A DNA stretch of 64,000 nucleotides from Schleiferiaceae bacterium (GCA_963715655.1 OY970262.1:2565236-2629235); one strand, 5' to 3'. Positions 1-33,763 are shown, counted from the stretch's first letter. A program made the numbers and translations. Notes: generated by a model not told the origin, from the sequence alone.

Positions 1-1102
1 ACTATCAGTACCCGAAGATTTTTGGTTAAGAGCATCTCAAACAGTGGATCAAGCTTGCCCAAACTTTGAAAACTTAAATAATAGCTTATACAAATTAAGC
101 GAACAATTTGTACGTGCGGCTTTAACCGTAAAGGCCAATAAAAGAAATTTCACCCTAGATAACATACTATGTGAGTATAATGGTAAAAAGGAAATTGAAA
201 GCATACTTGAGTTTTTCGCCTCAAGGTTAGAGAAGATAGAATCACTAATTAATGTTCAATACAAAAAAGGTACCTATGTTAATTATCGAACAGCACTTAA
301 GCACCTTCGAAATTTCATAAAAACAGAGCTTAGAAAATCAGATATTTTATTGGGAGAGGTACGCGTTCAATTTTTGGAAGATTTTTTCAACTTTTTAAAA
401 GTGAAATGTAATTGTCAAATAAATTCAGCCAATAAATATATGCGTTCCCTAAGAGCCATATTAAACGATGCTAAAAAACATGAGCTCATTACCTATTCAC
501 CCTTTGAAAATTATAGCCTTAAATATGAGCAGACCGAGCGCTCTATTTTAACCGAACATGAATTAAAAGTGCTTATAAAGAAAACCTTTGCAAATGAAAG
601 GTTAGAGAATACGCGTAAAATTTTCTTGTTTGCATGCCTAACGGGGTTAGCGTATGCAGATATAAAAGACTTAAGAGGTAAACACATAATAAGAGACAAT
701 GGTCGGTTGTTTATTCTTAAACCAAGGGTAAAAAGTTCGGTAAAAAGTACCATACCTTTATCTCAAACAGCAATCACTATTTTGGAGTCATATCAAGTAG
801 AAGAAACACCCTTAAACACCCAGTTGCCACACCCCGAACACACCCTCATCCACACCCCCTCTAATCAAAAACTAAATGCCTATTTAAAGGAAATAGCGGA
901 TGTATGCGGCTTTGATACGAATTTAACCTTTCATTGTGCAAGGCATACGTTTGCTACCACCGTTACATTATCTAATGGAGTACCTATGGAGAGTGTAAGT
1001 AAGATGCTAGGACACACCTCTATGAAAACCACTCAGATTTATGCGAAAGTATTGGAGAGTAAATTATTGGATGATATGGCTAATGTTTTTGAAAAGTATT
1101 AA
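1..1102 (+). CDS. Tyrosine-type site-specific integrase/recombinase (Bacteroidetes family), 5'-truncated by window start
   Basis: The reading frame is open from base 2 with no stop codon before the tracked GTG at 44, so the N-terminus lies off-window. The C-terminal catalytic region (HCARHTFAT ... LGHTSMKTTQIYAKV) has the conserved R/H/Y pattern of phage-integrase-family recombinases. Confidence 0.85.
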   Translation, partial: LSVPEDFWLRASQTVDQACPNFENLNNSLYKLSEQFVRAALTVKANKRNFTLDNILCEYNGKKEIESILEFFASRLEKIESLINVQYKKGTYVNYRTALKHLRNFIKTELRKSDILLGEVRVQFLEDFFNFLKVKCNCQINSANKYMRSLRAILNDAKKHELITYSPFENYSLKYEQTERSILTEHELKVLIKKTFANERLENTRKIFLFACLTGLAYADIKDLRGKHIIRDNGRLFILKPRVKSSVKSTIPLSQTAITILESYQVEETPLNTQLPHPEHTLIHTPSNQKLNAYLKEIADVCGFDTNLTFHCARHTFATTVTLSNGVPMESVSKMLGHTSMKTTQIYAKVLESKLLDDMANVFEKY

Positions 1103-5100: not shown

Positions 5101-6606
5101 TGGACGACAATTAATTCTCTTTCATTACCTCCAACTACGGGCATTAAAAAATTTCAAGGATCTAATACTGGTGATAAAGAAAATTTAGCTGGAAATCAGT
5201 TTGACGCTACTGTCGTTAATGATATTGATGTTAATTTATCCCGAAATAATGTAATTTATGTTCATCATAATGAAACTTACCTAAGTAATCCTCAAAACTT
5301 AAAACCCTCAATTAGCAGACTTATAACTAGTTATGGATTTGACTTAGAGTTTAACGGATCTTGTCCTTCTATTGGCAGTACGGTATTAAACAAAACTGAA
5401 TTGGATGGGATTATTGAAGATAGAAACGCTCTAATAGCCTCATCTAAAGGGTTTTTTGATGAAAATGTCGACTTTGGAAATCATATCAATTTATTGGAAG
5501 CAATAGGCTTTTATGAATCGATAGTATTATACGGAGAGGAAGATTTCCCTGACCCTGTTTTTAATGATGATGGTGATCAATTTGCAAGCTTATATAATAA
5601 TATTTTAGGTAATGCACCTTGGATGTCTGACGAGGCTGCCGCTGCGCTAATTATGCAATTGGGTTTTTCTGATGTTATGTTAAACAACATATTGTTGGCA
5701 CACCCACATGTTTTGAGAAATCCTAAAATTATGGACCTCTTAGAGCTATACCGTGATGGCTTTCTTGCTTATATTGATGGAATTAATAATGCAAGGGCGA
5801 ATAATTATACAGATTATGAAAATAAAATGATGTTATTATCAAATTACTCTACCGACAAATTTAAAGCAGTAGAAGAAATGGCCTCATTATTGTTTTTTGA
5901 AGATATCGGCAATGGTCTTTCTGATTTAGATGAACTTATTAGCTTTTATTCTGCTTACGATGAACCTATTTATCAATACAGAAAAGCGACATTAGAACTA
6001 GTTACTGGCGATTATAGTAGCGCTCAAAATACTCTTACTAACTTGAGTGTTCAAAATAATTTTGAAGGAGATGATGAAAAGCTGTTTAATGATTTTAGTG
6101 AATTATTAGCAATTGCGTCAAATGCCAATGGTAATGTAGCAAATTATACTCCCACAGCGAGTGAGGAAATATTTTTAGCGCGGATTGCTGAGGAGCGAGA
6201 CCACCCTTTAACCGGTTTTGCTTATAGTTTTTCACTAACTAAAAAAATGGCGACAGCGACATTGCACGATGAAATACCTAATGATAGATATGATCCCGTC
6301 TATGATTATAACGTAACTTATAATAATAAAAAGAATATAGTTGAAGAGAAAGCGTTAGTCAATCAACAATTGATAAGTTCTTTCTATGTTTATCCCAACC
6401 CAAGTAGCTCTTATTTTAATGTTGTTTCGACAGATATATTGGAAGGGGAAGCAGTGTTATATGATGTGCGGGGAGCTAAATTAAGAACAGTAGTATGCAA
6501 GAATGGCTTAGCTATTTTGCCTTTAACCTCCTTACCATCTGGCATATATGTAATAAAACTTAGTAACAGAATACAGGTGCAAACTCAAAAAGTAATCATT
6601 GATTAA
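2119..6606 (+). CDS. Very large secreted protein with right-handed beta-helix (PbH1-like) repeats and a T9SS C-terminal sorting domain
   Basis: The start is taken at the internal Met (MKKSKFLIVIVLFNCLLSSIWAQ, a signal peptide); the tracked ORF begins at 2056. Repeated NNTF/NxxF beta-helix-like motifs are present. The C-terminus (YPNPSSSYFNVVSTDILEGEAVLYDVRGAKL ... GIYVIKL) matches the Por/T9SS CTD. Confidence 0.8.
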   Translation: MKKSKFLIVIVLFNCLLSSIWAQNAPGVQWTRFDWPRIEPTTNLPQSREKSGEDWWYDHENVFINGQHTGYIAGGFSEGLNRDVNANTYKSLQDELYTCGDRVTPTCTDFEVIGRTTDCTKSLMFEYELNGNMKWCRIYYDGEFTDVQQTSDGGFIAGGYTRNSHVNGNPNAFSNGQLPNQTRLLYNPINSSSNQFLTKNPNVAWNTGSSRVGIVKTDSEGKIQWMHNYGPLEIIGGVSNSIELTTMKAKWVSIVEINSDFWVVAGYEYRTSIGGPVIFGSFLLKLDSQGYVKEKMLLAPQIITVGSAFISLKDVKKGPGSNTLYVAGSFHEENVIPKSYVAKIDITGTPNILWENLFSAQTVRPDPVNPSNTPVYRNSIIHDIEVRGNGNILVPAIVNCYSGDCFSSNNSTNKAELEIHEITSGGSRSVLYNLGEVNAYDLKAGITNTSDGGFAVVSSKGQYDSNGNLILPAPNDPLILSLLPPNTPNCHEDYKAWMSDVFVAKFSSSNSLEWQKTYDSHPNERQSYPYDLKKQECVYEITEDQATGDLVISGNTSHNFDDAYLLKLTGCQNDLNSEPITSVGAAGDEIIISNNTTWNSNKIIRGLVRVQNILIIDGATIQFADKGQSGQESGILIEPGAKLIVRNGATLTSIAGCESSTWSGIKVASNNFIFQSNNNSGQLELDGTINRVTIENADNAIFMGDPYNISANYWSSFGGIVHANGVDFKNNLRDAAFNSFGSTNTNIYYTQYDSYFKNCKFTKTEKYKAGLKSGGSVTIWACHGIDFENCVWDFTGEDYDEQSVQAAIYTVDASFNVTGNVINETASSRFINCNYGIYSFKSWDFPSRVVINNTLFDNNKKGAFLYGASGYRIQNNTFKIPSLPKDEYDLINAYGVYNRSKSSIQFFNNNTFEGIGTGGFNAGVIVSQSYSLPNVIEQNTFKDLYMANESNMDNRSNDQALGVSGLTGLEYHCNYFDNNDINIYVHHQPYPGNSWTTINSLSLPPTTGIKKFQGSNTGDKENLAGNQFDATVVNDIDVNLSRNNVIYVHHNETYLSNPQNLKPSISRLITSYGFDLEFNGSCPSIGSTVLNKTELDGIIEDRNALIASSKGFFDENVDFGNHINLLEAIGFYESIVLYGEEDFPDPVFNDDGDQFASLYNNILGNAPWMSDEAAAALIMQLGFSDVMLNNILLAHPHVLRNPKIMDLLELYRDGFLAYIDGINNARANNYTDYENKMMLLSNYSTDKFKAVEEMASLLFFEDIGNGLSDLDELISFYSAYDEPIYQYRKATLELVTGDYSSAQNTLTNLSVQNNFEGDDEKLFNDFSELLAIASNANGNVANYTPTASEEIFLARIAEERDHPLTGFAYSFSLTKKMATATLHDEIPNDRYDPVYDYNVTYNNKKNIVEEKALVNQQLISSFYVYPNPSSSYFNVVSTDILEGEAVLYDVRGAKLRTVVCKNGLAILPLTSLPSGIYVIKLSNRIQVQTQKVIID

Positions 6607-8188
6607 TTTCTCCATTAATAGAATTTCAAATAATCTAACAAAAGGGCTGCTTTTAGTAGCTCTTTTGTTATTAAATTCTAACCCTATAATTGCACAAGCT
6701 AAAGGATTTAACAAGCTTTACGGAGAAGTGGTAGTAAGCAGAAGTGTTCAGCCTTTAGGTCACACTTTCTTCACATATAGTGAAATGTCTGATGCTTTAT
6801 GGAATTACATTAAACTAATCAAGATAGATGCGGGTGGGCTGGTAATAGATACTTTTAGTTTTCGATTGGATTCTGTTCATTTAGGCATTAGCAATCACGT
6901 TTCTTTAACTTCAACTTCAGACTCTGGATTAATTTGTTCTTTTTACTATTACAAGCCTTCAGGAATAAAGGTTAACGGATTATTGAAGCTTGATAATAAT
7001 TTAAATGTTAAGTGGCATAATAACGTCTTTGAGGATACAAATAGACGAGGTTTATATCAGATTACCGAAGTATCAGACAAAGGCTTTGTTTGTACTGGTT
7101 TTGCTTATTTACCCGCCAGTAATCGCTATGAAACGTTTTTAGTAAAAACAGATAGTCTAGGTAACAAAGAATGGGAAAAACGCTATGATACTAATGTGCC
7201 TCAATACAGTCAATATGGAATATTTGTGTATGAATGCCCCAATGCAAGTGGTTATTTAATAAGCAACAGGCACGAAATTTTAACCAGTGGTCCTAATAAT
7301 GATGTGAAGCTAATTCGTACCGATATACAAGGCAATGTGCTTTGGGAAAAGCGTTGGGGAAAACCGAATGGTAGCGAAGGGTACGGCAGTGTGGGATATG
7401 TAAATGATAGTACGTTTATACTGTATTATTCTGAATTTACTGATACCATTCTCTATAACTCTACCTCAGGAGTAGTTCTACCTTTTATACGATCAACCCC
7501 TACATTTATTTTAGTTAATGATAAAAATGGAGCTCAGCTCAATCGTAATCAACCTATGAGCCCTACAGTGCAGATGGTGTCTACTAATTCATATTTTCAA
7601 AATGGAAAATTGTATGGGGCGGGTTACTTTTTTAGTTTATTTGGATCTATGCTTTTAGAGGGTGGAGGTTATCAAGGGTTTATTATTAGCGTGGATGAAA
7701 ACTTAAATTTTAATTGGTATAGACATTACAATCCTAGAGGAGCCTTAGCAATTCCTGATGATGATAGTTTTTTAATAGATATTAAACCAACGTTGGATGG
7801 CGGCATTGTAGGGGCAGGTTATTCTTTCAAATCAGATACGGCAGGTACAGGTAGGTTTGGTTTTCATGGATGGATGTTTAAAACAGATAGTATTGGATGC
7901 CTAGAAAGTACTTGCGGAGGGGATATACATTTAAAAGAAGATTTAGTTGATGAAGGAAACGGTATTCAGGTTTATCCAAACCCGAGTAGCTCTTTCTTTA
8001 ATGTTTTGTCTACTGATATTTTGGAAGGGGAGGCGATGCTTTATGATATGCGTGGAGCAGCTTTAAGTTCAGCACCTGTAAAGGACGGTAAGGCGCGACT
8101 AATCGTTGGCAATTTGCCAAAAGGAATTTATGTTATACGCGTTTTTTCCAAGTATCGTTCATTCAGTAAGCAGGTAGAGATTGATTAA
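6599..8188 (+). CDS. T9SS-secreted protein, paralog copy A (inverted duplicate of 48357-49943)
   Basis: TTG start followed by a signal peptide (KGLLLVALLLLNSNPIIAQA). The C-terminal T9SS CTD reads VYPNPSSSFFNVLSTDILEGEAMLYDMRGAAL ... GIYVIRV. The first ~270 aa and last ~130 aa are near-identical to the protein encoded at 48357-49943. Confidence 0.8.
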   Translation: MINFSINRISNNLTKGLLLVALLLLNSNPIIAQAKGFNKLYGEVVVSRSVQPLGHTFFTYSEMSDALWNYIKLIKIDAGGLVIDTFSFRLDSVHLGISNHVSLTSTSDSGLICSFYYYKPSGIKVNGLLKLDNNLNVKWHNNVFEDTNRRGLYQITEVSDKGFVCTGFAYLPASNRYETFLVKTDSLGNKEWEKRYDTNVPQYSQYGIFVYECPNASGYLISNRHEILTSGPNNDVKLIRTDIQGNVLWEKRWGKPNGSEGYGSVGYVNDSTFILYYSEFTDTILYNSTSGVVLPFIRSTPTFILVNDKNGAQLNRNQPMSPTVQMVSTNSYFQNGKLYGAGYFFSLFGSMLLEGGGYQGFIISVDENLNFNWYRHYNPRGALAIPDDDSFLIDIKPTLDGGIVGAGYSFKSDTAGTGRFGFHGWMFKTDSIGCLESTCGGDIHLKEDLVDEGNGIQVYPNPSSSFFNVLSTDILEGEAMLYDMRGAALSSAPVKDGKARLIVGNLPKGIYVIRVFSKYRSFSKQVEID

Positions 8189-8832: not shown

Positions 8833-11106
8833 ATGTCATTAATAGACAAAGGACTTGAGCATGGGCACATCAAGTTTGATGAAGAAGAAAAATACATCAT
8901 CTATGTAGCTCCAGGCAAACGATACCGCTATACTGATCCCGAAGAACAAGTAAGAACTGAATCTTACTTATCCTTCATTTTCGAATATGGTTACAATCCT
9001 AAGCGCATGAGTCTTGAAGTAACTGTACCTAGAAGAACCCCTAGCGATTTAGCCGACATTGTCATTTTTGAAGATGATGATAAACTCACGCCCTACATAG
9101 TTGTAGAATGTAAAAAGCAAAAGATTTCAGAAGCAGAGTTCAACCAAGCCATTGAGCAAGGTTTCGGAAACGCTGTTTCGCTCAACGCACCTTTCATGCA
9201 GATTACATCAGGCATTAAAACAAATGCCTATGATGTCAAAAACTTTCCTCCACTCGAAAGGGTAAAGAACCTTATTGCAGATATTCCCCGATTTGGTCAA
9301 TCGGGTATTACCAAAGCAAAGTTTTACAAAGGCGCCATTGATGAAGACGGCAATCCTGCTAAAGACATTAAAGTTGTAGAGCAAAGCGACCTAACGAGAG
9401 TTTTTGAGCAAGCGCACCAAGCCCTTTGGGCAGGTGGAAAGCGGAATCCTTCCGAAGCATTTGATGAATTGGATAAACTCATTTTCTGTAAGATTTGGGA
9501 TGAACGTAAAGACCGCAAGCCAGGTCAGCCTTATGCCTTTCAAGAGTTTACAGGCGAACATCCGAACGAATTGCTTGAGAGAGTACAAGCCATTTACAGC
9601 GAAGGAAAAGAGAAAGACCCAGAAGTATTCAAAGAACCAATTCGCTTATCAGCTTCTGAACTTAAAACCATCGTGGGTTATTTATCAGAACTCAACCTCC
9701 ACGATACCGACCTTGACAGCAAAGGCCGAGCATTTGAAACTTTCTTAGGTTCATTCTTTCGTGGTGATTTTGGACAGTACTTTACGCCTCGAGAAGTGGT
9801 AGACTTTATTGTAAAAGTACTGCCCATTAATAACGATAGTTTAGTGCTTGATTCTTCTTGTGGAAGCGGTGGTTTCTTATTGTACGCCTTAGACAAGGTG
9901 AGAAAAAGAGCCGACCAGATGGCCGAAGAAGGCTATTTCAAAAAAGGCTCTACCAAGCACCGCGACTATTGGCACGATTTCGCAGAGCATAACCTCTACG
10001 GTATTGAAATTTCTGAAAGCATTGCCCGTACTGCCAAAATTAATATGATTATTCATGATGATGGCCACACCAATGTAATTGCTGTGGATGGCCTTAATCC
10101 TATTGAAGAAATTGCTCCAGTACCCAACGAAACCGAAAGAGAGAAAGAATGGCGTGAAAAGCTCAATGCCATTTCTATTCAGAAAGTTTCAGGAAACAAA
10201 GGATTTAAAGAAAACAACTTCGATTTCATCATCACCAATCCACCGTTTGGCTCTAGCATCAAACAAACCGAACAAGCCTATCTCAAAAACTACGGCTTGG
10301 GTATTAAAGATGTCAATTGGGTTGACCAACGATTAAAATCCAATTTCAAATTAGGAACACGCACCAGTCAAAGCACTGAAGTGCTTTTTATTGAGCAATG
10401 CCACCGTTTTTTAAAACCAGGCGGTGTGTTAGCAGTGGTTATTCCTGATGGTATTTTGACCAACTCAAGCTCGCAGTATGTGAGAGATTGGATTGAAGAA
10501 CACTACCGCATCATTTCTGTGGTTTCACTACCTCAAACAGCCTTCTCTGCCAATGGTGCAGGAGTTAAAAGCTCAGTTCTCTTCTTAATGAAGTTGGATG
10601 CCAAGCAAACCAAGAAAGTTCAAAACACCAAAGAGAAAATCCAAGATGATTTATTCTTTCAACCCCAATACGAAGCGGAGATTAAGCGGCTTGATAAAGA
10701 GAAAAAACGCATCATTAAAGAGCATGAAGGCTTTGACTACACCAGTATCAATTGGGAATTAGAAGACAATCTAAAAGCCTTAAATGGTGCATCTGCACCT
10801 GAGCAATATGACAAAGCCGCTCGCAAGCTCGCTGAGAAAAGCGAAGAATTTAAAGCATGGAAGTCTGACATTGGTCAACTCTACAATGAGCAGATCAATG
10901 AAGTAAAAGAAAATTTGCAAGACGAGTACCTCAAGCGCATTGGCGAAGAGCTGATAGACTATCCTATCTTAATGTTAATTGCTGAAAATATCGGTTATGA
11001 TACGGTTGGTCGTAAAACAGGGATCAATGAACTTGAGATAATTGCGCCAGAAATAGAAAGGTTTATTACTGACATTAAAACAGGGCAAGACCCTTTTTTC
11101 GTCTAA
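8833..11106 (+). CDS. Restriction-modification enzyme subunit: N-terminal HsdR_N-like PD-(D/E)xK nuclease domain fused to a gamma-class N6-adenine DNA methyltransferase
   Basis: The N-terminal region (DLADIVIFEDDDKLTPYIVVECKKQK) fits the D...ExK motif of the HsdR N-terminal nuclease family. A SAM-binding region (LDSSCGSGGFLLYA) and the catalytic NPPF motif (FDFIITNPPFGS) are present. 757 aa is larger than a canonical HsdM. Confidence 0.8.
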   Translation: MSLIDKGLEHGHIKFDEEEKYIIYVAPGKRYRYTDPEEQVRTESYLSFIFEYGYNPKRMSLEVTVPRRTPSDLADIVIFEDDDKLTPYIVVECKKQKISEAEFNQAIEQGFGNAVSLNAPFMQITSGIKTNAYDVKNFPPLERVKNLIADIPRFGQSGITKAKFYKGAIDEDGNPAKDIKVVEQSDLTRVFEQAHQALWAGGKRNPSEAFDELDKLIFCKIWDERKDRKPGQPYAFQEFTGEHPNELLERVQAIYSEGKEKDPEVFKEPIRLSASELKTIVGYLSELNLHDTDLDSKGRAFETFLGSFFRGDFGQYFTPREVVDFIVKVLPINNDSLVLDSSCGSGGFLLYALDKVRKRADQMAEEGYFKKGSTKHRDYWHDFAEHNLYGIEISESIARTAKINMIIHDDGHTNVIAVDGLNPIEEIAPVPNETEREKEWREKLNAISIQKVSGNKGFKENNFDFIITNPPFGSSIKQTEQAYLKNYGLGIKDVNWVDQRLKSNFKLGTRTSQSTEVLFIEQCHRFLKPGGVLAVVIPDGILTNSSSQYVRDWIEEHYRIISVVSLPQTAFSANGAGVKSSVLFLMKLDAKQTKKVQNTKEKIQDDLFFQPQYEAEIKRLDKEKKRIIKEHEGFDYTSINWELEDNLKALNGASAPEQYDKAARKLAEKSEEFKAWKSDIGQLYNEQINEVKENLQDEYLKRIGEELIDYPILMLIAENIGYDTVGRKTGINELEIIAPEIERFITDIKTGQDPFFV

Positions 11107-11138
11107 GCCCCGATTTAGATGAAGACAGGTTCTTCATT

Positions 11139-12584
11139 TTGAATCGGGGCGAAATCGAATTTAGATTAGACCCACTCTATTTTAGAGCACTAAAGCAAAT
11201 TGAAACTGATATTGTTGAAAAGGCAAAATATCCAGTTCACCCCGTAAGACAAGTTTGTGCTATAAAACGCGGAAAGTTTACGCATAGACCGAGAAATGAT
11301 CCAAAATTGTATGATGGCGAATATCCATTTATTCAGACAGGAGACATTGTTCGTTCAGCGACAACAGGAAATGAAATAACCTACAAGCAAACTCTTAATG
11401 AGTTGGGTAGAATGACCAGTAGATTGGCCTATCCTCCTCAGTTATTAATGACCATTGCTGCCAATATTGGGGTTACAGCCATTCTTGATTACGCATGTTG
11501 CTATCCTGATAGTATTGTCGCTATTGACCCAAAGAATCAGGGATTAAACACTTCAATAGAATACTTAGATGTTTATTTTACTTTGATTCAACCTTATGTT
11601 GAACAGCTTGCCCCTTTTGCAGCACAACGAAATTTAAACAATCAGCAACTCGGAGATATTCCTCTAATTCTGCCCGATAATACCATTCAGCAAAAAGCAA
11701 TTGATAGTTACAAAAAGGCCGTTGAAGACAAGAAAGCCAAAGAAAACCAAGCCCAAGAGCTACTCGCTTCTATTGATGACTACTTACTTACAGAGTTAAG
11801 TATCGTCCTTCCGCCTGAGCCAGAAAATGCAATTGAGAATAGGAAGTTTAGGACTAATTTTTCAAGTGTCACAGGTAACCGCTTCGACCCAAAAAGATAC
11901 AGCACAAGAACGGAGCAACTCTATGATTCAATTCACAATTCTATTTTTCCATTAAGAAGCTTAAAATCCCTTCTTATTCACACCGCATCAGGCCAATGGG
12001 GTGATGAGCCTCATGAGTCTTTTAATGAAAAGCTTTACAAGCAATGCCTTGTTATCAGATCTACAGAATTTGACAATCGATTCAATTTAAAACTTGATAA
12101 TAGCAGGGCAAAATATCGCCTTATAACTAAAACGAAACTTGATAAACTTGATCTGCAACCTTATGACATCCTAGTTGAAAAATCTGGTGGCAGTCCAGAT
12201 CAACCAGTTGGTAGAGCAGCAATTCTTCTACCTGAAATATTTGAAAACAATACGATTTGCTACAGCAACTTCATTCACAAATTCCGTGCTGATCAGTCTA
12301 TTATAGATCCTGAATACTTGTTCGCTTATCTAAAGGTGATTCATAATATCAAGTTGACAGATACTATGCAAAGTCAAACCAATGGAATTAGAAACTTGAT
12401 TATGAGAGAATATTGGAATCAAGAGATTCCTATTCCATCACCCGAAAAACAAAAAGAAATAGCTACTCAGTTTTTCAACCTTAAAAATGAAGCACAAGAA
12501 TTATTCAAAAATGCTGAGTTAGACTTTCAGCAAGCAAAAAAAGAAATTGAGCACTTAATCTTAAATCCTGCAAACAATGACTAA
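11139..12584 (+). CDS. hsdS: Restriction-modification specificity (S) subunit, HsdS-like with two target-recognition domains
   Basis: Two variable TRD-like halves are separated by conserved coiled-coil spacer repeats (LPDNTIQQKAIDSYKKAVEDKKAKENQAQELL and IPIPSPEKQKEIATQFFNLKNEAQELF). TTG start 33 nt after the upstream stop. Confidence 0.8.
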   Translation: MNRGEIEFRLDPLYFRALKQIETDIVEKAKYPVHPVRQVCAIKRGKFTHRPRNDPKLYDGEYPFIQTGDIVRSATTGNEITYKQTLNELGRMTSRLAYPPQLLMTIAANIGVTAILDYACCYPDSIVAIDPKNQGLNTSIEYLDVYFTLIQPYVEQLAPFAAQRNLNNQQLGDIPLILPDNTIQQKAIDSYKKAVEDKKAKENQAQELLASIDDYLLTELSIVLPPEPENAIENRKFRTNFSSVTGNRFDPKRYSTRTEQLYDSIHNSIFPLRSLKSLLIHTASGQWGDEPHESFNEKLYKQCLVIRSTEFDNRFNLKLDNSRAKYRLITKTKLDKLDLQPYDILVEKSGGSPDQPVGRAAILLPEIFENNTICYSNFIHKFRADQSIIDPEYLFAYLKVIHNIKLTDTMQSQTNGIRNLIMREYWNQEIPIPSPEKQKEIATQFFNLKNEAQELFKNAELDFQQAKKEIEHLILNPANND

Positions 12585-13011
12585 AACGATAATAGCCCTT
12601 TGGGGCACAGCCAATATCGGTAAATCTATGACACTAGCTCGCCTTGGCAGACAGTTACAAGCTAATGGTGCTACCACAAATGCTAACATTACAGGTGGAG
12701 ATTATCGAGCCATATTTCAGTATCAAAACAAAACTATTGGCCTTCAAACCTATGGTGATACAGAGCATTTGGTAAACCAAGGATTAACTGAGTTTCAAAA
12801 TCAGCAATGTGACATAATTGCCATTGCTTCTAAATCTTATGGAGCTACCGTTGATACTATTGGAGCATTTGCAGGTCAAAATGGCTATCGCATTATTTGG
12901 TCAAGTCCCTATGAAGTGAGAGATGGCTCCATCACTACTGATACAATTAAGAACTATGCTGCAAGCCACTTGCTTAGAATGGTTGATGATGTAATTGCAG
13001 GTATTCTATAG
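12577..13011 (+). CDS. Small P-loop NTPase/kinase-like protein (144 aa), uncharacterised
   Basis: Walker A-like motif WGTANIGKSMTL near the N-terminus and a hydrophobic-D stretch (CDIIAIAS) resembling Walker B. The ATG overlaps the hsdS stop by 8 nt (AATGACTAA), suggesting translational coupling. Confidence 0.55.
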   Translation: MTKTIIALWGTANIGKSMTLARLGRQLQANGATTNANITGGDYRAIFQYQNKTIGLQTYGDTEHLVNQGLTEFQNQQCDIIAIASKSYGATVDTIGAFAGQNGYRIIWSSPYEVRDGSITTDTIKNYAASHLLRMVDDVIAGIL

Positions 13012-13013
13012 AA

Positions 13014-13856
13014 TTGAATATAATGGGAGAGAAAACTATCACATACCAAAGGCAACTCATAGGCGTAGAAATAAAGCTTGGTTTCTTATACGTTCCGGCA
13101 CAAGCCAGAGACTTGTTGCCCAATGAAAACGGCAAAGTGCAAGTGCTACTCGAAGGAGAAAACAAACCCAAAGCAAAGAGCTACAATGCAGACTATAACC
13201 GCATTTTTGGCCTTACTCCTTTCTTCAAAAAGCACAAACTAGAAAAGGGCAATATTCTCACCGTACAGGTCAGCAATGATCTTATCAAGGTAGAGCTTGC
13301 CAAAACCACCATCATAGAAGATCAGGAAGAAAATGAGCAAGCAGATGTCATTGATATTTCAGGTTTATCATCCCAAGCCAAAGGAAACATTGCCGAAGAC
13401 CGAGTAAAAGAAATCATCTTACTCAATAGTCAAGGCTTGCTCAATGTCTATCGTCCCGTTATCGATACCAGGGGCATTGATATGATTGTATTGAAAGAAG
13501 GTTTGTTTCATTCCATTTACCTACAAGTAAAATCACGTTTTCAGGTAAAAAGCAATGGTCAATTAATACTCACCATCAGCAAGAATACTTTTAAACCACA
13601 TCACGCTCATTATTTAGTAGGCATTAGTTACGAACCTGATGTTGCAGAAATAGGTGAACATATACTCTTTATGCCTTCCAAAAAGGTAATAGAAATGGCC
13701 ACCATAGTAAAGAACAAAGGCAAAGAATATTACCGCATCAATGTTTCTTACAACAGCGCCAAAAGTGGTAAATACAAAAAGTACTTTATGAGCAAGCAAG
13801 ACTTTGTAGAAAGCCTACTCGAAAAATTTGAAGCCATGAGCGAAATGATAAAATAA
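13014..13856 (+). CDS. Putative restriction-type nuclease: N-terminal B3/EcoRII-N-like DNA-binding pseudobarrel plus C-terminal PD-(D/E)xK-like core
   Basis: The N-terminus (IGVEIKLGFLYVPAQARDLLPNENGKVQVLL ... YNRIFGLTPFFKKHKLEKGNILTVQV) has the typical B3/EcoRII-N pattern. The C-terminal half (VYRPVIDTRGIDMIVLKEG ... IYLQVKS) resembles D..(E/Q)xK nuclease strands. The start lies 3 nt after the previous stop. Confidence 0.45.
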   Translation: MNIMGEKTITYQRQLIGVEIKLGFLYVPAQARDLLPNENGKVQVLLEGENKPKAKSYNADYNRIFGLTPFFKKHKLEKGNILTVQVSNDLIKVELAKTTIIEDQEENEQADVIDISGLSSQAKGNIAEDRVKEIILLNSQGLLNVYRPVIDTRGIDMIVLKEGLFHSIYLQVKSRFQVKSNGQLILTISKNTFKPHHAHYLVGISYEPDVAEIGEHILFMPSKKVIEMATIVKNKGKEYYRINVSYNSAKSGKYKKYFMSKQDFVESLLEKFEAMSEMIK

Positions 13857-13867
13857 CCCACTTACCT

Positions 13868-15388
13868 ATGAGATTAGAAGGACTATTACAAGAATCATTA
13901 GGCGGCTTTGTCTGCATCCGTGGGTATGCCCCGCTTGGTGATTTAGCACGTATTTCAGAGTCAGACCCGGACTACCAAAGAAACCTGATTGAAGAACAAC
14001 GAGAAGAGATTGTTCACTTTTTAGAAAACAAAGAATACCTCTTCTTTCCAGAAGTAATTCTATCCTACACGCTCAAGTATGATTTTGCAACGGGTGTGTC
14101 AGGTATCAATCCATTAAGAGACATTCTTGACCGCAAGAAATTCGCTTCTAATGTTGATGGTATTCGCTTTAACTCTACAAAGTCAGGAGTTCATAAGGTA
14201 ATAGTTGACATCACAGAATCTTTCCTAAAATCAGATACACCCTTCTTTCGCATAGATGGCAACCACCGTTTGAGTGCTTCACAGGAGAAAACGGCCTTCA
14301 ACGAGTACGTTACTCCTTTTTGCTTGATTCTATTTCCTGAAGGAAATCAATCAGAAGAATACAAAAGGGTCATATTTCATAACATCAATTCAAAATCAGT
14401 TCCACTTACATCAGAAGAAAATCTAAGGCTCATTCTTGATGAAGAAAACATATTCTCTGATGAAAAGCTCAAAACCCAACCCAGTTTTGGTGTGGAGTTT
14501 TTCTTAGCACGTAAGTTGAAAGACAGCATCGATCTCCATGTTTTAAAACACATAGCTAATTCCTTTAAACAGGTAAAACACAATGGGGATGAAATAGAAA
14601 ACAAACGAACCGTTCTACTCAAACTCTTTAAGCTTCTTCTTGATAAAGAAGCTGTTGAAGGCAATGATGAAGCCATCAACATGGTGCATTCGGCTATAGT
14701 GGCAGTAAACGAACTGTATGGCAAGTATGCCAAGCTAGCCGCTTGTCATTCTCATGCCTTGTTCATTGCTTTTGTCTATTACGAGCTACACCTTGAAAAG
14801 GGGGATTATCGTGCATCATTCAAAAATTGGGTGCTGTACAACCACATGTACAATGTAGATGACATTTCACCATCCAATTTGGTTAGTGTTTACGATACCA
14901 TACTCGAATCTCGCAAGCGACACATCTTCGTTTCTATGCAATTCTCAGATGATACAAAGAATCATTACACAGCCATTAAGAATGCCATAGATCAAGTAAA
15001 CCAAAAGCATAAACTTGACCTAGAACTAAAGGAAATTAGAATAGATGAAATGAACAAAGGGTACTCCTACACCATTTCAGACGAAATACTACAGCTAATA
15101 AACAACACAGGCTTGCTTATTGCAGACCTCACGCATGGCAACAGAAATGTTTACCATGAGTTAGGCTTCCTTATGGGGCTTAATGTAGGGAGAGACTTAA
15201 AACACAACAACTTCATACTCTTAATGAAAAATGACCCCAACGGAAAAACAGATGCTGAAGTAGGGTTTAACATTAGAGACTTTCAGCAAATCAGATTCAA
15301 TGAAGCAATAGAAATAACCGCACGTTTAGTTGAGTCATTGGAGGTCTATTACAAATTAAAACCAGCAGGGAATGAAGTAGAAAACTAA
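13868..15388 (+). CDS. Two-domain protein: N-terminal ParB/Srx-fold DGQHR/DUF262-like domain and C-terminal NDT/SLOG/TIR-like Rossmannoid domain
   Basis: The N-terminus contains FFRIDGNHRLSAS (compare the DGQHR motif of DndB and DGQQR of DUF262/GmrSD). The C-terminus has HIFVSMQFSDD ... LLIADLTHGNRNVYHELGFLMG, which resembles the D-x-T...FE-x-GY signature of nucleoside 2-deoxyribosyltransferase-like/TIR-like domains. It is the last gene of the operon, 12 nt after the previous stop. Confidence 0.5.
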   Translation: MRLEGLLQESLGGFVCIRGYAPLGDLARISESDPDYQRNLIEEQREEIVHFLENKEYLFFPEVILSYTLKYDFATGVSGINPLRDILDRKKFASNVDGIRFNSTKSGVHKVIVDITESFLKSDTPFFRIDGNHRLSASQEKTAFNEYVTPFCLILFPEGNQSEEYKRVIFHNINSKSVPLTSEENLRLILDEENIFSDEKLKTQPSFGVEFFLARKLKDSIDLHVLKHIANSFKQVKHNGDEIENKRTVLLKLFKLLLDKEAVEGNDEAINMVHSAIVAVNELYGKYAKLAACHSHALFIAFVYYELHLEKGDYRASFKNWVLYNHMYNVDDISPSNLVSVYDTILESRKRHIFVSMQFSDDTKNHYTAIKNAIDQVNQKHKLDLELKEIRIDEMNKGYSYTISDEILQLINNTGLLIADLTHGNRNVYHELGFLMGLNVGRDLKHNNFILLMKNDPNGKTDAEVGFNIRDFQQIRFNEAIEITARLVESLEVYYKLKPAGNEVEN

Positions 15389-15451: not shown

Positions 15452-15477
15452 CGAAGCCCTTTACGGGCTTTTTTTGT
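15452..15477 (+). terminator. Rho-independent terminator closing the 8833-15388 operon
   Basis: Hairpin aagccc-tttac-gggctt followed by a run of T residues, 64 nt after the stop of 13868-15388. Confidence 0.6.
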
Positions 15478-15522
15478 TGTGTTGTAAGCTCCCCCTGTAA
15501 GCTCCCCTTTTTTAGTACGGTT

Positions 15523-16398
15523 CTAAAGTAGACTATTTTCTTTATTAGTTTCATTAATCAAAATATCCCTTGGTGCAGTGGAGCGTAGCGGAACGGAACC
15601 AAGGGATATTTTTCGGTTTTTGTTTCTATAGGCCACAGGGCTTATGCCACCCAGCGCATCGTGTGGTCGTTCATGGTTGTAATCTTCTACCCAAGATTCG
15701 GTCACTTCTCTTACTTGATCTATTGAACTAAAGAGATAAGCATCTAAAATATGCCTGCGATAGGTTTTATTAAAACGCTCTATTAGCGCATTTTGAGTAG
15801 GCTTACCGGGCTGTATATATTTAAACTCAATACCGTGCATCACGCTCCATTGAGTCGTTAATTTAGCTATAAATTCTGGACCATTATCCATACGTAGTTT
15901 TTGCGGCTTTCCGTGTTTGTTTATCAAGTGGTTTAATACCCAAATTACTCTGCTACTTTTTAAAGAATAATCTGTTTCTATAAACAGTACTTCTCGATTG
16001 TAGTCATCTATTACATTAAAGCTTCGGAACTTCCTTCCATGCTCTAAAGCATCGCTCATAAAATCAATACTCCACGTATGCGTAAAGCACTCGGGTATTA
16101 TTATGGGTTCTTTTACCCGCGCTGGTAAACGCTTTTTTACTTTCCTTCTTAATGGCAAGCCCATCTGCTTATATATCCTATGTAGCCGCTTGTGATTGAT
16201 TAATTCCTCCTTATTACGAAGACGGTAATAACTCTTCCAAAAGCCTTCGCGTGGATGTTTTATACTCAACTGCTTTAATAATAGCTCTACGCTGCTATCA
16301 TCCTTTATTGATTGATAAGCAATACTACTGCGACTAGTCTTTAATACGCGACACGCCTTGCTTATGCCGCGCGGATAAGTGCTTTTTATGCTTTCCAT
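15523..16398 (-). CDS. IS3-family transposase OrfB (DDE integrase core)
   Basis: 291 aa with an rve-like integrase core (WSIDFMSD ... DNGPEF ... [10 protein letters not shown]). Expressed by -1 frameshifting from orfA. Confidence 0.9.
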
Positions 16399-16421
16399 TA
16401 TTTCTCTCTTTTGGCAAGGCT

Positions 16422-16688
16422 TTAAAGCTTTTTTTCAATAATGTGCTTGGCGATATCTAACTCTAAAGCTAAATCGGTGTACATGCGTTTTAGCTTCGCA
16501 TTTTCTTCTTCTAGCTTCTTTATGCGCTTTAGCTCACTAGCTTCCATGCCGCCATAGCGTTGTCGCCATTTATAAAATGTTGCTTTGCTTACGCCATGCT
16601 CTCGGCTAATCGTAGCTACATCTTTGCCTTGTTCAAACTCCTTGAGAATACTGGCAATCTGGTTTGGGGTGAATTTGCTCTTTTTCAT
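16422..16688 (-). CDS. IS3-family transposase OrfA (HTH plus leucine zipper)
   Basis: 88 aa, [47 protein letters not shown] with a coiled-coil tail. The slippery heptamer A_AAA_AAG sits just before its stop. Confidence 0.9.
16428..16434 (-). promoter_or_regulatory. Programmed -1 ribosomal frameshift heptamer A_AAA_AAG of the IS3 element
   Basis: The plus strand reads ctttttt, which is AAAAAAG on the coding (minus) strand, located at the codons ...GAA AAA AAG CTT TAA at the end of orfA. Confidence 0.6.
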
Positions 16689-19188: not shown

Positions 19189-21012
19189 TTAAGCTGCTTT
19201 TGTGTAATTGTTGTGTTCGTGTATTAACTTTCCATCGGTTTTTAAAGAGTTGATATAACGTTCAGCGGTCTTCTGGTTAATTTCTAGTGCATTGGCAATT
19301 GTCAAATACCCTTGTCGGGTAAAATTATCGGGTAAATTTTTAAAGAATTGAGCCACCTTATCCGATGGTTTTTTTGGAGCAACACCTTTAAGTTTGGCAA
19401 ATATTTGAAGTGTATGTTCAAAAACTGTTTTTGCCACCTCTAATGCAATATCTACATCCTCATTACTCGGAATCAATTCGTTTTTGAAGTCACCATTATC
19501 CATCATTCTTAATACAGTTAAAATCATACAAACTCTATAAGCGAATGATGCTAATCGTCTTCCGCTTGCTGTGGTGTCTTCTCCTAACTCAGCATTAGCT
19601 CTTTCTAGTAAGATTGGGAACTCCTGATTAAATCTATCCAGTAAATAGTTAGTTTCAGTAAAATTGACCTCCCCAAGGTCGTGCAGTCGCTTTACAAAAC
19701 CACAATATCTATTTCCTAACACTTTAAAGTAATCTTCTGTGCTAACCGATTTTCTTTTCTCAAGCTTAAGGGGCGTCCATAACCTACCTATCTCAATTTG
19801 ATAAAATTGAAACCTACTAAAAAAACCATCTTGCACATTTGGTATAAGATTGGCAACCTGATTATCCGTTCCGCTTAAAAGTGTTGAGAGCTTTGGGGTA
19901 TCAATTTCGGAATATTCGCTGTTAGTGGATCTAAATGAGGTGATGGTTTCGTGTTCAAACGCCCTCCTTAACATTTCGGAGAAGTTACCCATTTCACTTT
20001 TCACTGAATTTGCTAGAGTGTCAGCTTCTGTCTCAAATAGGCATCCAATACCGTTGTTTTCAGAAAGGTTTTTTTTAAATCCAGCTGAAGTGTTGTTTGC
20101 GGGTATAAAGTGTAATTTTCTAGCAGGTTCAATCAGAGGAGCAACACCCTTATTATTAGATTCTTTAAATAGTGCTTTATCGATTTCGTACTGCGCCCAT
20201 TCTTGCTTGGTTTGCTCCAATAACATTTTGTGATATGGCATAGCTAATAATTTGCATAAGGATAATTTACCTTTTCCAGCAGATGCAGGGCCTGTTATAA
20301 ATAAGAATAGGTTTGGAAAAATCTTTCTATCGCGATAAATACCAGAAACATTAAACATCAATGAACCTAATGTAACAAGCGATCCAAGGAATAATAAATC
20401 TCGCTCTTGCTCACCTTCATGTGTTTTAAAGATATCAGTTAAGAGCGTTGGTAAATTCTCAAAAACAGCGTTTGGGATAAATGGCGGTCGTTTTTGTTTT
20501 ATTTTTAAGTTGCTTTGCATCTTATTGCTAAGTAGTTGTTTGGCATGTTCAGTATGTTTGGATGTAATAGAATTAGCGGTGCTCCTTTTTTTTGATTTTT
20601 TAGTGCTAATCTCTAAGTTAGCTTCCTTAGCGTAAGAGAATAAAGTCCCTATTGAAATTCCACCCATATTACGCTTGAGCGCTTGGTTAAATTTCGCGTC
20701 ACTTTCCTTACTATTATAAGCTGGGTGAAACTGACTGATTTTGTGAAAGTATGGCCGTCCATCTTCCTTAAATTCATCAACTAATGCAAAAGCTATATTC
20801 CGCCAACGTTCTTCCGTAGTAGTTAAATCAAGGGAGTGATGCTCAATCTGGTTTATTATTAATTCCACCTGTTCTCTAGTTGAATTGAACTTTTCATTTT
20901 TAGAAGAAAAGGCTGTTTCCGACTTTTTTAAAGTAGGTCTATCATTTTTATTAAATCTCGACTCGTTTTCTATTCGTTTTAGATACTCTTCTGGGTTGAA
21001 TTTAATTTTCAT
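19189..21012 (-). CDS. DUF3987-type P-loop (helicase-like) protein with N-terminal PriCT-2-like region; replication/mobilisation protein of Bacteroidetes mobile elements
   Basis: Walker A motif FITGPASAGKGKLS. The N-terminus (WRNIAFALVDEFKEDGRPYFHKISQF) resembles a primase C-terminal PriCT-2 domain. It sits in a typical position next to a Prim-Pol gene. Confidence 0.65.
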   Translation of the reverse strand: MKIKFNPEEYLKRIENESRFNKNDRPTLKKSETAFSSKNEKFNSTREQVELIINQIEHHSLDLTTTEERWRNIAFALVDEFKEDGRPYFHKISQFHPAYNSKESDAKFNQALKRNMGGISIGTLFSYAKEANLEISTKKSKKRSTANSITSKHTEHAKQLLSNKMQSNLKIKQKRPPFIPNAVFENLPTLLTDIFKTHEGEQERDLLFLGSLVTLGSLMFNVSGIYRDRKIFPNLFLFITGPASAGKGKLSLCKLLAMPYHKMLLEQTKQEWAQYEIDKALFKESNNKGVAPLIEPARKLHFIPANNTSAGFKKNLSENNGIGCLFETEADTLANSVKSEMGNFSEMLRRAFEHETITSFRSTNSEYSEIDTPKLSTLLSGTDNQVANLIPNVQDGFFSRFQFYQIEIGRLWTPLKLEKRKSVSTEDYFKVLGNRYCGFVKRLHDLGEVNFTETNYLLDRFNQEFPILLERANAELGEDTTASGRRLASFAYRVCMILTVLRMMDNGDFKNELIPSNEDVDIALEVAKTVFEHTLQIFAKLKGVAPKKPSDKVAQFFKNLPDNFTRQGYLTIANALEINQKTAERYINSLKTDGKLIHEHNNYTKAA

Positions 21013-21040
21013 AATTTTTTTTTGGATTTAGACTAAGGAG

Positions 21041-21958: not shown

Positions 21959-21969
21959 AGGTAGAGGTT

Positions 21970-22239
21970 TTAAAGGTTACTGTTTTGTTGACTTTGGTCT
22001 AACATTTCATCGATATCCTTTTGACGATAGAATATTTTACCTTGAACTTTGGAAAACTTAATAGTTCCATTTTCCCTCCACGAGGCGAGGGTTCGTTGAG
22101 AAACATTTAGAAGTTTCATCAAACTAGAATTGTCGTAAATCTTACTAGGAGATTTATTTGACTTAATGTACTCGAAAATCGAATCGAGTTGCTGCTGATA
22201 ACGGGTGTACTCTTCTTTAGGTACTGCTGAAAAATTCAT
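21970..22239 (-). CDS. Excisionase-like HTH DNA-binding protein (Bacteroidetes mobile-element Xis/HTH_17 type)
   Basis: 89 aa with LMKLLNVSQRTLASWRENGTIKFSKVQGKIFYRQKDIDEML, a typical MerR/excisionase-like HTH found upstream of Prim-Pol/DUF3987 genes in Bacteroidetes integrative elements. Confidence 0.65.
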   Translation of the reverse strand: MNFSAVPKEEYTRYQQQLDSIFEYIKSNKSPSKIYDNSSLMKLLNVSQRTLASWRENGTIKFSKVQGKIFYRQKDIDEMLDQSQQNSNL

Positions 22240-22349
22240 CTTTTATTATTTTTAATGAGGGCACAAGATGAATGTGATTTTCAATAATTAGGAATTGCTA
22301 ATATCATATATGAGTGATATTAATAAAAAAAGTACTGTCTGTCAATGAT

Positions 22350-30380: not shown

Positions 30381-30483
30381 TTTTTTGCTAGCTGTTAATC
30401 TGTTTTTTATTTGGAGGTTGCGATATTTTTAAATGACTTTCGAGTAGAGATGCATTGCAAATGAAATTAATACTAAACTTTAG

Positions 30484-33089: not shown

Positions 33090-33110
33090 TTTTTAATTTG
33101 GTTTAATTAG

Positions 33111-33761: not shown

Positions 33762-33763
33762 GG

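Follow-up and report, generated by a model that had tools for sequence, protein, structure and literature searches.

A probable BsaXI-like type IIB restriction enzyme and its conserved ParB-like, N-glycosidase-like partner gene in a Schleiferiaceae bacterium

The window analyzed here, a 64,000-nucleotide stretch of DNA from a Schleiferiaceae bacterium (GCA_963715655.1 OY970262.1:2565236-2629235), contains adjacent genes for a nuclease-methyltransferase (RM) subunit and a specificity (S) subunit, separated by 32 nt, and three more co-directional, tightly packed genes continue past the S subunit (Table 1). The first of these overlaps the S gene by 8 nt, and the last is followed by the sole terminator-like hairpin found downstream on the + strand, whose position alone is suggestive of a terminator that closes the five-gene block. 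The IS3-family transposase beyond this hairpin is the downstream boundary and lies outside the system.

Table 1. Features of the five-gene block and its downstream boundary; positions are counted from the first letter of the window.
Feature	Position	Strand	Description and basis
RM subunit gene	8833-11106	+	757 aa; ORF translation, Pfam, profile alignment, AF2 model
Nuclease domain of RM subunit	8938-9243	+	residues 36-137; Pfam HSDR_N_2
Putative catalytic residues of RM subunit	E62 9016-9018; D75 9055-9057; E92 9106-9108; K94 9112-9114	+	
N6-adenine methyltransferase domain of RM subunit	9715-10626	+	residues 295-598
NPPF motif of RM subunit	10237-10248	+	residues 469-472
Knob-equivalent helical insertion of RM subunit	10600-10950	+	residues ~590-706; AF2 model, HMM alignment
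S subunit gene	11139-12584	+	481 aa, TRD1-CR1-TRD2-CR2; Pfam, PADLOC, profile search
Small P-loop protein gene (cassette)	12577-13011	+	144 aa, Walker A GTANIGKS; weak AAA_22 match
Second cassette gene	13014-13856	+	277-280 aa; putative C-terminal PD-(D/E)xK-like motif E...GID...QVK, read from sequence only
Third component gene	13868-15388	+	506 aa; DGQHR/ParB-like N-terminal part, helical middle, TIR/NDT-like C-terminal part
DGNHR motif of 506-aa protein	14255-14269	+	within FRIDGNHRLS, residues 127-136
C-terminal part of 506-aa protein	14915-15352	+	residues ~350-495, flavodoxin-like
Terminator-like hairpin and T-run	15453-15481	+	single consensus match
IS3-family transposase	15523-16688	-	orfA 16422-16688, orfB 15523-16398; Pfam HTH_Tnp_1, rve/rve_3

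The RM subunit opens with a PD-(D/E)xK nuclease at its N terminus, which a helical connector joins to a gamma-class N6-adenine methyltransferase; a helical 'knob' follows, and the chain ends in a short C-terminal helix. A preliminary description of this DNA had noticed a nuclease motif (LADIVIF...YIVVECKK, residues 73-95) ahead of the NPPF motif of a methyltransferase, and Pfam agrees with it, matching HSDR_N_2 (E 1.6e-13, 51 bits with a cutoff of 25) and N6_Mtase (E 7e-33) to the corresponding parts of the protein. The SAM-binding motif, DxSCGSGGF, lies at about residues 340-348, and both NPPF and the residues D340, G344 and G346 are invariant in all 77 RM homologues compared. In the AF2 model of the protein (pLDDT 82), the nuclease domain adopts an alpha-beta-beta-beta-alpha-beta core, and the knob-equivalent insertion consists of helices at residues 590-608, 614-630, 644-650, 661-667 and 671-706, after which the chain enters the last methyltransferase strands.

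This domain order is shared with BsaXI (PDB 8w0p, 8w2p, 8w2q), an experimentally characterized type IIB RM+S enzyme that is described as 'BcgI-like' and reported to function as RM+S alone (PMC9159934); in both enzymes the nuclease, helical connector, NPPF N6A methyltransferase and knob follow in the same order. The RM family profile aligns with RM.BsaXI from end to end (profile 10-716, BsaXI 17-770, E 6.9e-54), whereas the following matches, to HsdM proteins, start at E 4.5e-19 and are confined to the methyltransferase part. The top three PDB matches of the AF2 model are likewise BsaXI chains (best 8w0p_A, E 8.1e-29, 875 columns), with HsdM next (E 2e-16, ~430 columns). The RM subunit and BsaXI are about 21% identical, with a whole-chain TM-score of 0.53, a modest value for a flexible multidomain protein. 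These matches support the type IIB part of the earlier proposal that the locus encodes a BcgI-like type IIB enzyme, but they place BsaXI, not BcgI, as the nearest relative.

The similarity to BsaXI includes the residues on which cleavage by that enzyme depends. BsaXI E73, D90, E105 and K107 are reported to be essential for cleavage (PMC11997821), and the profile alignment makes them correspond to E62, D75, E92 and K94 of the RM subunit; in the printed ungapped alignment E62, E92 and K94 pair exactly and D75 falls two columns off D90, so the equivalence of these two aspartates is drawn from strand position. Among the 77 RM homologues D75, E92 and K94 are invariant, and E62 is kept in 33 and occupied by F or Y in 44, many of the latter having an E immediately preceding the D. 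The HMM alignment of the family also extends through BsaXI residues 626-770, in keeping with an insertion equivalent to the knob as defined for that enzyme (PMC11997821). The two chains differ in length, 757 aa in the window and 916 aa in BsaXI. The window protein is without the C-terminal paddle, a part of BsaXI that carries the cleavage-required residues D816 and E823 (PMC11997821); in the AF2 model only ~35 residues lie beyond the last strand, and no paddle is seen. Close BsaXI homologues of less than 800 aa are described as likewise without a paddle (PMC11997821), so this absence does not exclude the RM subunit from the BsaXI-like group, but it does mean that double-sided cutting is not assured.

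The S subunit continues the parallel, as both systems have a separate two-TRD specificity protein (481 aa in the window, 476 aa in BsaXI) whose gene follows that of the RM chain (PMC9159934). Its identification as a two-TRD S subunit, also made in the preliminary description, is upheld by two Methylase_S stretches in Pfam (E 8.8e-17), by the PADLOC Specificity_I model (258 bits) and by a family profile that matches solved HsdS structures as well as S.BsaXI over its full length (54-465, E 9e-23). The M and S genes neighbor each other in 70 of 80 related loci from many phyla. At least 7,900 database clusters came out of a search for RM homologues, with matches distributed over many bacterial phyla and including one archaeal record.

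BsaXI has no motor protein, and none is encoded by the window ORFs scanned. The earlier statement that this stretch contains no SF2 helicase or HsdR stands, since 23 window ORFs scanned with Pfam gave no match to ResIII, DEAD, Helicase_C or HsdR domains; these ORFs include 16 of the 17 listed ORFs of at least 400 aa; the one left out (54290-55492), at 400 aa, is too short for an HsdR. Across the 80 related loci, no SF2 or HsdR gene recurs within +/-10 kb. The sole large ATPase of the window, at 25458-30380, is a DUF3686/AAA protein.

The last gene of the block encodes a 506-aa protein that is a conserved third partner of the RM-S pair, not a chance neighbor. It comes after S in 26 of 56 loci, and in 17 of these 26 its start and the S stop codon share 4 nt (ATGA); in an independent sample anchored on the third gene, the M family is present in 49 of 51 loci. 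When the arrangement changes, to an alternative order with the third gene (D) between M and S (M-D-S) or to an RMS fusion followed by D, all three components are still found together, and the pairwise identities of M and D are correlated (r = 0.89). The remaining 30 of the 56 loci contain RM+S without this gene, so RM+S can stand alone. A frequent third gene is also a point of difference from BsaXI, with which the portions of the two papers drawn on here (PMC9159934, PMC11997821) mention none.

The 506-aa protein is an undescribed fusion of ParB-like and TIR/deoxyribosyltransferase-like parts that travels with RM-S. No Pfam family matches it at curated thresholds, PADLOC lacks a dedicated model for it, and it bears no descriptive name; its family numbers 286 representatives at E <= 1e-30. 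On the N-terminal side, TIGR03187 (DGQHR) scores 27.5 bits on the window protein, below its curated cutoff of 58.85, and the DGQHR model is matched by all 43 family members tested (best E 1.1e-10); Foldseek points to ParB-N (5k5d, probability 0.92), and there are weak family matches to DpdB, DndB and GmrSD_N. The C-terminal part resembles TIR, nucleoside 2-deoxyribosyltransferase (NDT), DNPH1 and MilB-like folds, the PADLOC TIR effector model is matched by 35 of 43 members (best E 3e-5), and Pfam Nuc_deoxyrib_tr is matched by 3 of 43, a marginal similarity. E431, DGNHR and ADL..N.NVYHE.G are invariant in the family, and the pTM of the AF model is only 0.50. The preliminary description had suggested that downstream genes might be recruited to replace the missing helicase; this has partial support, in that the third gene is a conserved partner, but one with ParB-like and N-glycosidase-like parts instead of an SF2 translocase.

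The 506-aa protein is comparable at its N-terminal part to DndB, DpdB, SspE and GmrSD, and like these it is encoded in a modification-dependent defense operon. Among them, DpdB is a ParB-like ATPase on which DpdA depends to exchange bases in DNA (PMC10164549). The 506-aa protein differs from this group in having DGNHR in place of DGQHR or DGQQR, in being fused to a TIR/NDT-like domain and not to an HNH or helical domain, and in its partner, an m6A RM-S enzyme as opposed to a PT or 7-deazaguanine pathway.

The two genes between S and the third gene are an inserted, independently mobile accessory cassette within the operon. The P-loop gene occurs at only two of the 80 genome loci (L005 and L047), and at a further locus (L171) it follows a DGQHR gene. 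The product of the second cassette gene matches nothing at E <= 0.01 in Pfam or NCBIfam or at E <= 10 among PDB sequences, and its matches in PHROGs and PADLOC are marginal; its family comprises 183 homologues, every one bearing an organism name being from Bacteroidota, and one of them adjoins classical HsdM, S and R genes (L170). Under the tentative three-component reading set out below, the slot beside the third gene would also serve as a landing site for other defense cassettes, Kiwa at one locus (L157) and the P-loop and nuclease-like pair in the window.

The explanation that we consider probable is that RM and S form a BsaXI-like type IIB enzyme, with the third gene as a co-inherited accessory and the two intervening genes as an inserted cassette. 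By homology with BsaXI, one S subunit would carry two RM chains in an (RM)2S assembly, and the two TRDs of S would recognize a bipartite DNA site that is probably asymmetric. In each half-site the NPPF methyltransferase domains would flip and methylate one adenine and in this way protect host DNA, and on unmethylated DNA the N-terminal PD-(D/E)xK domains (E62, D75, E92, K94) would cut near the site, with neither ATP nor an HsdR motor, in a geometry that may differ from that of BsaXI since the paddle is missing. The 506-aa protein, a putative ParB-like NTPase/DNA-binding module coupled to an N-glycosidase-type effector, would not be the primary nuclease but may provide a further layer of action or control, by NAD+ or nucleotide hydrolysis or by base removal.

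A more far-reaching possibility, which is tentative, is that RM, S and the 506-aa protein make up an undescribed three-component restriction system in which a ParB-like NTPase is fused to a deoxyribosyltransferase/TIR-type N-glycosidase. In one version the 506-aa protein would excise bases where RM-S finds DNA unmethylated, a restriction by glycosylase that would parallel the support of DpdA base exchange by DpdB; in another, it would trigger NAD+ or nucleotide breakdown when phage anti-restriction proteins block restriction. The strict form of this idea casts the 506-aa protein as the principal effector or as a subunit that the system cannot do without, RM-S serving mainly for site recognition and self-marking, so that unmethylated DNA is base-excised or the cell is killed or arrested through NAD+ or nucleotide hydrolysis. 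The near-constant presence of the M family in third-gene-anchored loci, the 4-nt overlap with S, the retention of the set in rearranged and fused forms, the M-D correlation, the invariant motifs in an NDT-, TIR- and DNPH1-like fold, and the need of DpdA for a ParB-like ATPase are all in its favor. We nevertheless regard the strict form as unlikely, because RM+S occurs without the third gene in 30 of 56 related loci, the M nuclease residues are invariant with or without it, and BsaXI is active as RM+S alone (PMC9159934).

Resemblances to type I systems (EcoKI, EcoR124I; HsdR2M2S) raise another alternative, an ordinary type I methyltransferase (M2S) with an HsdR elsewhere or lost and with the HsdR_N-like domain as a non-catalytic or regulatory appendage. 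Homology to type I counterparts extends to the catalytic core of M and to the S subunit, the N-terminal nuclease shares its Pfam family (HSDR_N_2) with the nuclease end of HsdR, the best PADLOC model for the RM subunit is MTase_I ('Type I methyltransferase', 537 bits), which we take to be REBASE-derived, and the S subunit scores as Specificity_I; public names of homologues also invoke type I. This alternative is improbable, since the invariance of D75, E92 and K94 argues for selection on catalysis, the RM chain is homologous over its full length to that of a biochemically proven nuclease-methylase, and HsdR is absent from the scanned window ORFs and does not recur within +/-10 kb in the 80 related loci. 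The same full-length BsaXI match and conserved cleavage residues also speak against a plain HsdM to which an unrelated extension has been added at the N terminus. With the nuclease fused to M and not to a motor, and no SF2 translocase subunit, cleavage is expected near the site and not at distant collision points. A reduced or variant methylation-associated defense system (MADS), considered because M and S match the models of MAD2 (a methyltransferase) and MAD5 (a specificity subunit), is scarcely credible. NCBIfam MAD2 (E 1.7e-90) does align over residues 21-601, N-terminal domain included (model 5-580 of 654), MAD5 matches S at E 2.5e-17, PADLOC mad2 and mad5 also match, and MADS too marks a bipartite site (10.1101/2023.03.30.534895); but the scores, 304 and 63 bits, are far below the NCBIfam equivalog cutoffs of 720 and 400, and neither PADLOC nor NCBIfam matches any of its mad models to the three downstream proteins. 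MADS has eight genes, of which mad2-4 and mad6-8 are all required for resistance (10.1101/2023.03.30.534895); six mad genes are absent at the window locus, and its third gene is unrelated to any mad gene.

The probable BsaXI-like enzyme also shares its concept with BcgI, the archetypal type IIB (A2B) system, in which A combines nuclease and methylase, B is HsdS-like, and the enzyme acts at a bipartite site without using ATP (PMC11997821, PMC9159934). RM+S enzymes of the BcgI group are described as having an EcoKI-like M fold with a lone C-terminal helix, and a knob is described for no enzymes other than BsaXI and the single-chain RMS group, BcgI being without it (PMC11997821). By this published description, the knob-like insertion sets the window protein apart from BcgI.

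The RM family is very large, and public records name its members 'type I restriction enzyme M protein', 'restriction endonuclease subunit M' or 'N-6 DNA methylase'. If these proteins are self-contained BsaXI-like enzymes, then defense censuses that require HsdR would miss them or call them incomplete, and the family would offer a large, so far untapped supply of type IIB-style enzymes whose bipartite specificities are new. In addition, the putative ParB-like/N-glycosidase-like partner of RM-S would be a specific example, open to testing, of restriction coupled to another effector that is not a nuclease.

The two restriction-modification (R-M) genes are followed by three further genes, closely packed and in the same orientation, then by the only terminator-like hairpin found downstream on that strand and an IS3 element in the opposite orientation; therefore, the unit to be explained comprises five genes rather than two. 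The preliminary description had read the first protein as a D...ExK nuclease joined to an NPPF-type N6-adenine methylase and the second as a two-TRD HsdS subunit, and both assignments were borne out, since Pfam places HSDR_N_2 and N6_Mtase domains in the former, with the quoted motifs located, and two Methylase_S stretches in the latter. This RM plus S architecture is real and scores far above chance. A promoter scan was uninformative (13 sites versus 19.7 expected, with a sigma-70 consensus that does not cover Bacteroidota promoters).

Features of the R-M gene block and its surroundings (positions in the window; residues where stated)
Feature	Position	Strand	Remarks
Integrase (tyrosine)	44-1102		
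RM gene	8833-11106	+	757 aa; HSDR_N_2 at residues 36-137 (Pfam, E 1.6e-13), N6_Mtase at 295-598 (Pfam, E 7e-33)
RM motifs	residues 73-95; 469-472		LADIVIF...YIVVECKK; NPPF
S gene	11139-12584	+	481 aa; two Methylase_S stretches (Pfam, E 8.8e-17)
Small gene 1	12577-13011	+	144 aa; 8-nt overlap with S; Walker A GTANIGKS
Small gene 2	13014-13856	+	277-280 aa
Third gene	13868-15388	+	506 aa
Terminator-like hairpin	15453-15481	+	sole one downstream on + strand
IS3 transposase orfAB	15523-16688	-	opposite strand to R-M block
Mobile-element genes	19189-23585		includes DUF3987/PriCT, BT4734-like and HTH_17 genes
DUF3987/PriCT primase-like gene	19189-21012		
HTH_17 gene	21970-22239		
DUF3686/AAA ATPase	25458-30380	-	

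Judged by sequence and predicted fold, the nearest characterised relative of the window RM protein is BsaXI. The single window sequence matched RM.BsaXI (PDB 8w0p_A) at E 1.9e-35, and a profile of 26 RM family members aligned over positions 10-716 with BsaXI residues 17-770 (E 6.9e-54); the next profile matches, none stronger than E 4.5e-19, were type I HsdM chains and covered only the methylase core. Modelled with AlphaFold2 (mean pLDDT 82, pTM 0.71), the protein gave BsaXI chains as its three top PDB fold matches (E 8e-29, 875 aligned columns, TM 0.53, 21% identity), followed by HsdM (E 2e-16, about 430 columns). BsaXI is described as a type IIB (RM)2S heterotrimer that recognises AC N5 CTCC, cuts on both sides of its site, requires Mg2+ and SAM and operates without a translocase (PMC11997821), and its genes are arranged as RM then S (PMC9159934), the same order as in the window. 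By analogy, the window proteins would form an (RM)2S complex that methylates a bipartite m6A site and cuts near it independently of ATP.

The catalytic residues of the nuclease can be compared directly, as the BsaXI report describes loss of cleavage on alanine substitution of E73, D90, E105 or K107 (PMC11997821). In the alignment, BsaXI E105-V-K107 and E73 fall exactly on window E92-C-K94 and E62, while BsaXI D90 and window D75, both at the beginning of the same strand, are offset by two columns where the alignment is free of gaps. In 77 full-length homologues drawn from 80 genomic loci, no variation occurs at D75, E92, K94, NPPF or the SAM-motif residues; E62 is retained in 33 of them, and F or Y takes its place in the remaining 44, many of which have a Glu just before the Asp ("KEADI"). 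Given this invariance, and a canonical alpha-beta-beta-beta-alpha-beta core at residues 36-134 of the model, the window nuclease looks active and under selection.

Outside the nuclease, the comparison reveals one shared and one divergent element. BsaXI is reported to carry, ahead of its last methylase strand, an inserted helical knob (residues 626-742), plus a long two-helix paddle in which D816 and E823 matter for cleavage (PMC11997821). The window model has helices over residues 590-706, followed by its final strands and a single short helix (734-749), and the family HMM alignment ends at BsaXI residue 770, so the window protein is predicted to have the knob but no paddle. The authors of the BsaXI report note that a paddle is likewise missing from close homologues of BsaXI under 800 aa in length (PMC11997821). 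Mainly because of this missing element, cleavage identical to that of BsaXI is not claimed.

The specificity subunit is, from its profile matches, a standard TRD1-CR1-TRD2-CR2 protein. A profile of 38 family S proteins gave E 4e-41 to 6e-33 against solved HsdS structures and E 9e-23 against S.BsaXI residues 54-465, and the TRDs are highly variable across the family (mean pairwise identity 28%). S adjoins M in 70 of the 80 genomic loci, often with a 4-nt overlap, and these loci span Bacteroidota, Alpha-, Beta- and Gammaproteobacteria, Desulfobacterota, Cyanobacteria, Deinococcota and others.

The preliminary description had reported no SF2 helicase or HsdR in the 64 kb. This observation held in a Pfam scan of 23 window ORFs, including 16 of the 17 of at least 400 aa (all except the 400-aa ORF at 54290-55492), where no ResIII, DEAD, Helicase_C or HsdR architecture was detected; apart from one DUF3686/AAA ATPase, the products recognised were proteins of transport, synthetase, secreted and mobile-element types. 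No SF2 gene recurs near M in the 80 genomic loci, where a regex search of large ORFs for SF2-like motifs picked out two isolated, non-recurrent ORFs (L022 and L070) distant from M. A classical type I arrangement with a nearby HsdR is therefore rejected for the window and these loci by the Pfam scans and neighbourhoods, and an hsdR may be encoded elsewhere in the host genome. Of the two readings offered in the preliminary description, a BcgI-like type IIB enzyme or a translocase-less type I variant, the type IIB one is supported by full-length homology, catalytic residues and the lack of a nearby motor, with BsaXI as the more precise reference.

Membership in MADS was also considered, as the best NCBIfam match of the RM protein is MAD2. 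This match reaches 304 bits against a cutoff of 720, and neither PADLOC nor NCBIfam models detected other mad genes at the locus; MADS depends on mad2-4 and mad6-8 (10.1101/2023.03.30.534895), and with scores under the cutoffs and the other genes missing this assignment was rejected. The best PADLOC model is "MTase_I" (537 bits, full length), so, together with the MAD2 match, current classifications treat the family as a type I-like M, though homology says that it is a type IIB-like RM chain. The family is very large, with at least 7,900 database clusters (most among those listed being 715-790 aa), and homologues are named "N-6 DNA methylase", "restriction endonuclease subunit M" or "type I restriction enzyme M protein". 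Five cyanobacterial loci carry M homologues of 1023-1191 aa, with no separate S downstream in L037, L041, L048 and L054 and only a 186-aa S-family fragment in L031; these are possible R-M-S enzymes on one chain, comparable to the single-chain type IIB group.

The third gene is a linked component of a sub-lineage of these systems rather than a chance neighbour, as indicated by its position downstream of S, the presence of M in anchored loci and the correlated identities of the two proteins. Clustering of neighbouring ORFs placed its family directly after S in 26 of the 56 loci where S was complete and 1.6 kb or more of downstream sequence was present, with a 4-nt overlap in 17 of the 26. In a metagenome sample anchored on the third gene, 51 loci had 4 kb or more of upstream sequence and 49 of these carried the M family, and pairwise identities of M and the third protein correlate (r = 0.89, 27 loci). 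Three extra contexts reached through the third protein all have the order HSDR_N_2 methylase, S, third gene, the RM part of one being broken by an integrase. Several loci flagged for lacking S directly upstream of the third gene have it between M and S, an order seen directly, with overlapping genes, in L158, L161, L162 and L168; S is likewise not directly upstream in L163 and L165-L167. Where no M was called, L146 encodes R, M and S as one 838-aa fusion that has a single TRD and precedes the third gene, and in L131 the third gene is found with an ion-channel protein and an Eco57I/MmeI-like methylase of 1167 aa. A search of a plasmid collection with the third protein found only a decayed chimera on a Leisingera thetidis plasmid (L169, NZ_CP109788), where a 747-aa CDS at 5864-8107, annotated "N-6 DNA methylase", carries in its 3' part the C-terminal 370 residues of the third, DGQHR-family protein and looks like a chimera formed by deletion from the M and third genes.

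RM and S occur without the third gene in 30 of the 56 loci, so these two proteins are presumably self-sufficient; the third protein may instead be the key effector of the system. It is named "hypothetical" in source records, is 98% identical to a Roseivirga seohaensis protein, has no Pfam match at E <= 0.01 and no dedicated PADLOC model, and belongs to a family of 286 representatives at E <= 1e-30. In the N-terminal part, the NCBIfam DGQHR domain was matched by all 43 aligned members (best E 1.1e-10), and DpdB, DndB or GmrSD_N weakly by a few; the family conserves FRIDGNHRLS there, within which R128-L135 is invariant, and in the C-terminal part an ADL..N.NVYHE.G motif containing invariant E431. 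Its AlphaFold2 model (pLDDT 81, pTM 0.50) has Foldseek matches that include SPARTA TIR, DNPH1 and a ParB-N domain. Known relatives of the ParB-like type have NTPase activity: the ATPase DpdB is needed for DpdA-catalysed DNA base exchange, and the NTPase activity of the SspE ParB-like domain depends on a DGQQR motif (PMC10164549). In addition, NDT- and TIR-type domains have been suggested to serve as toxins or effectors within abortive-infection proteins, some of these lying in R-M operons (PMC3710099). By analogy with these proteins, the third protein might be a DNA-associated NTPase coupled to an N-glycosidic-bond hydrolase, whose substrate could be NAD+, nucleotides or DNA bases. The literature, covered in part, yielded no description of the gene combination seen here, which is a weak negative.

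The two small genes preceding the third gene are read as an independently mobile accessory cassette that landed inside the operon. Among the 80 genomic loci, the 144-aa gene is confined to L005 and L047 and the 277-280-aa gene to L005, L006 and L029; these loci are all from Bacteroidota, as are all organism-named members of the 183-member 277-aa family. The pair, a P-loop protein and the 277-aa protein, precedes the third gene in the window and follows it in L171 (6554-7825), and a 277-aa homologue lies beside a classical HsdM/S/R set in Aquimarina (L170, 7001-7825), so that the pair looks like a mobile cassette tied to R-M systems. The slot it occupies, between S and the third gene, is filled in L157 (3894-5415) by a Kiwa system, consisting of a membrane protein and KwaB (PF16162, E 1.3e-34). 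The 277-280-aa protein had no match in Pfam, NCBIfam or PDB by sequence or profile at the thresholds used, and its PHROGs and PADLOC matches were marginal; reading of its sequence points to a C-terminal E...GID...QVK pattern of the PD-(D/E)xK-nuclease type and a possible B3-like N-terminal domain.

The genes that trail the system were considered as possible further parts of it and rejected. By sequence reading, independent-looking modules of type IV style come after the triad or the S-DGQHR pair in alphaproteobacterial loci, as well as in the Lentimicrobiaceae MAG L024, namely a GmrSD-like DUF262 protein, an Mrr-like protein or McrB/McrC-like proteins (L013, L016, L017, L051; L014, L018, L033, L051; L021, L024); other loci have what look like DUF1016-like, RhuM-like or housekeeping genes after S. 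These neighbours would fit a defence island, not a shared operon. In the window itself, mobile-element genes flank the R-M block on both sides, and no tRNA gene was found within the 64 kb. Further downstream, four co-directional genes on the minus strand (25458-34501) encode a protein of 1640 aa in which DUF3686 ("ATPase involved in DNA repair") is joined by DUF7902 and AAA domains, one of 725 aa lacking a Pfam match, a 216-aa protein and a PspA/IM30 protein, and could constitute a stress or defence module.

The RM-S core of this locus is probably a new member of the BsaXI-like type IIB enzymes, and the three-gene arrangement, with the DGQHR-family gene as its third member, would be a new form of such a system.
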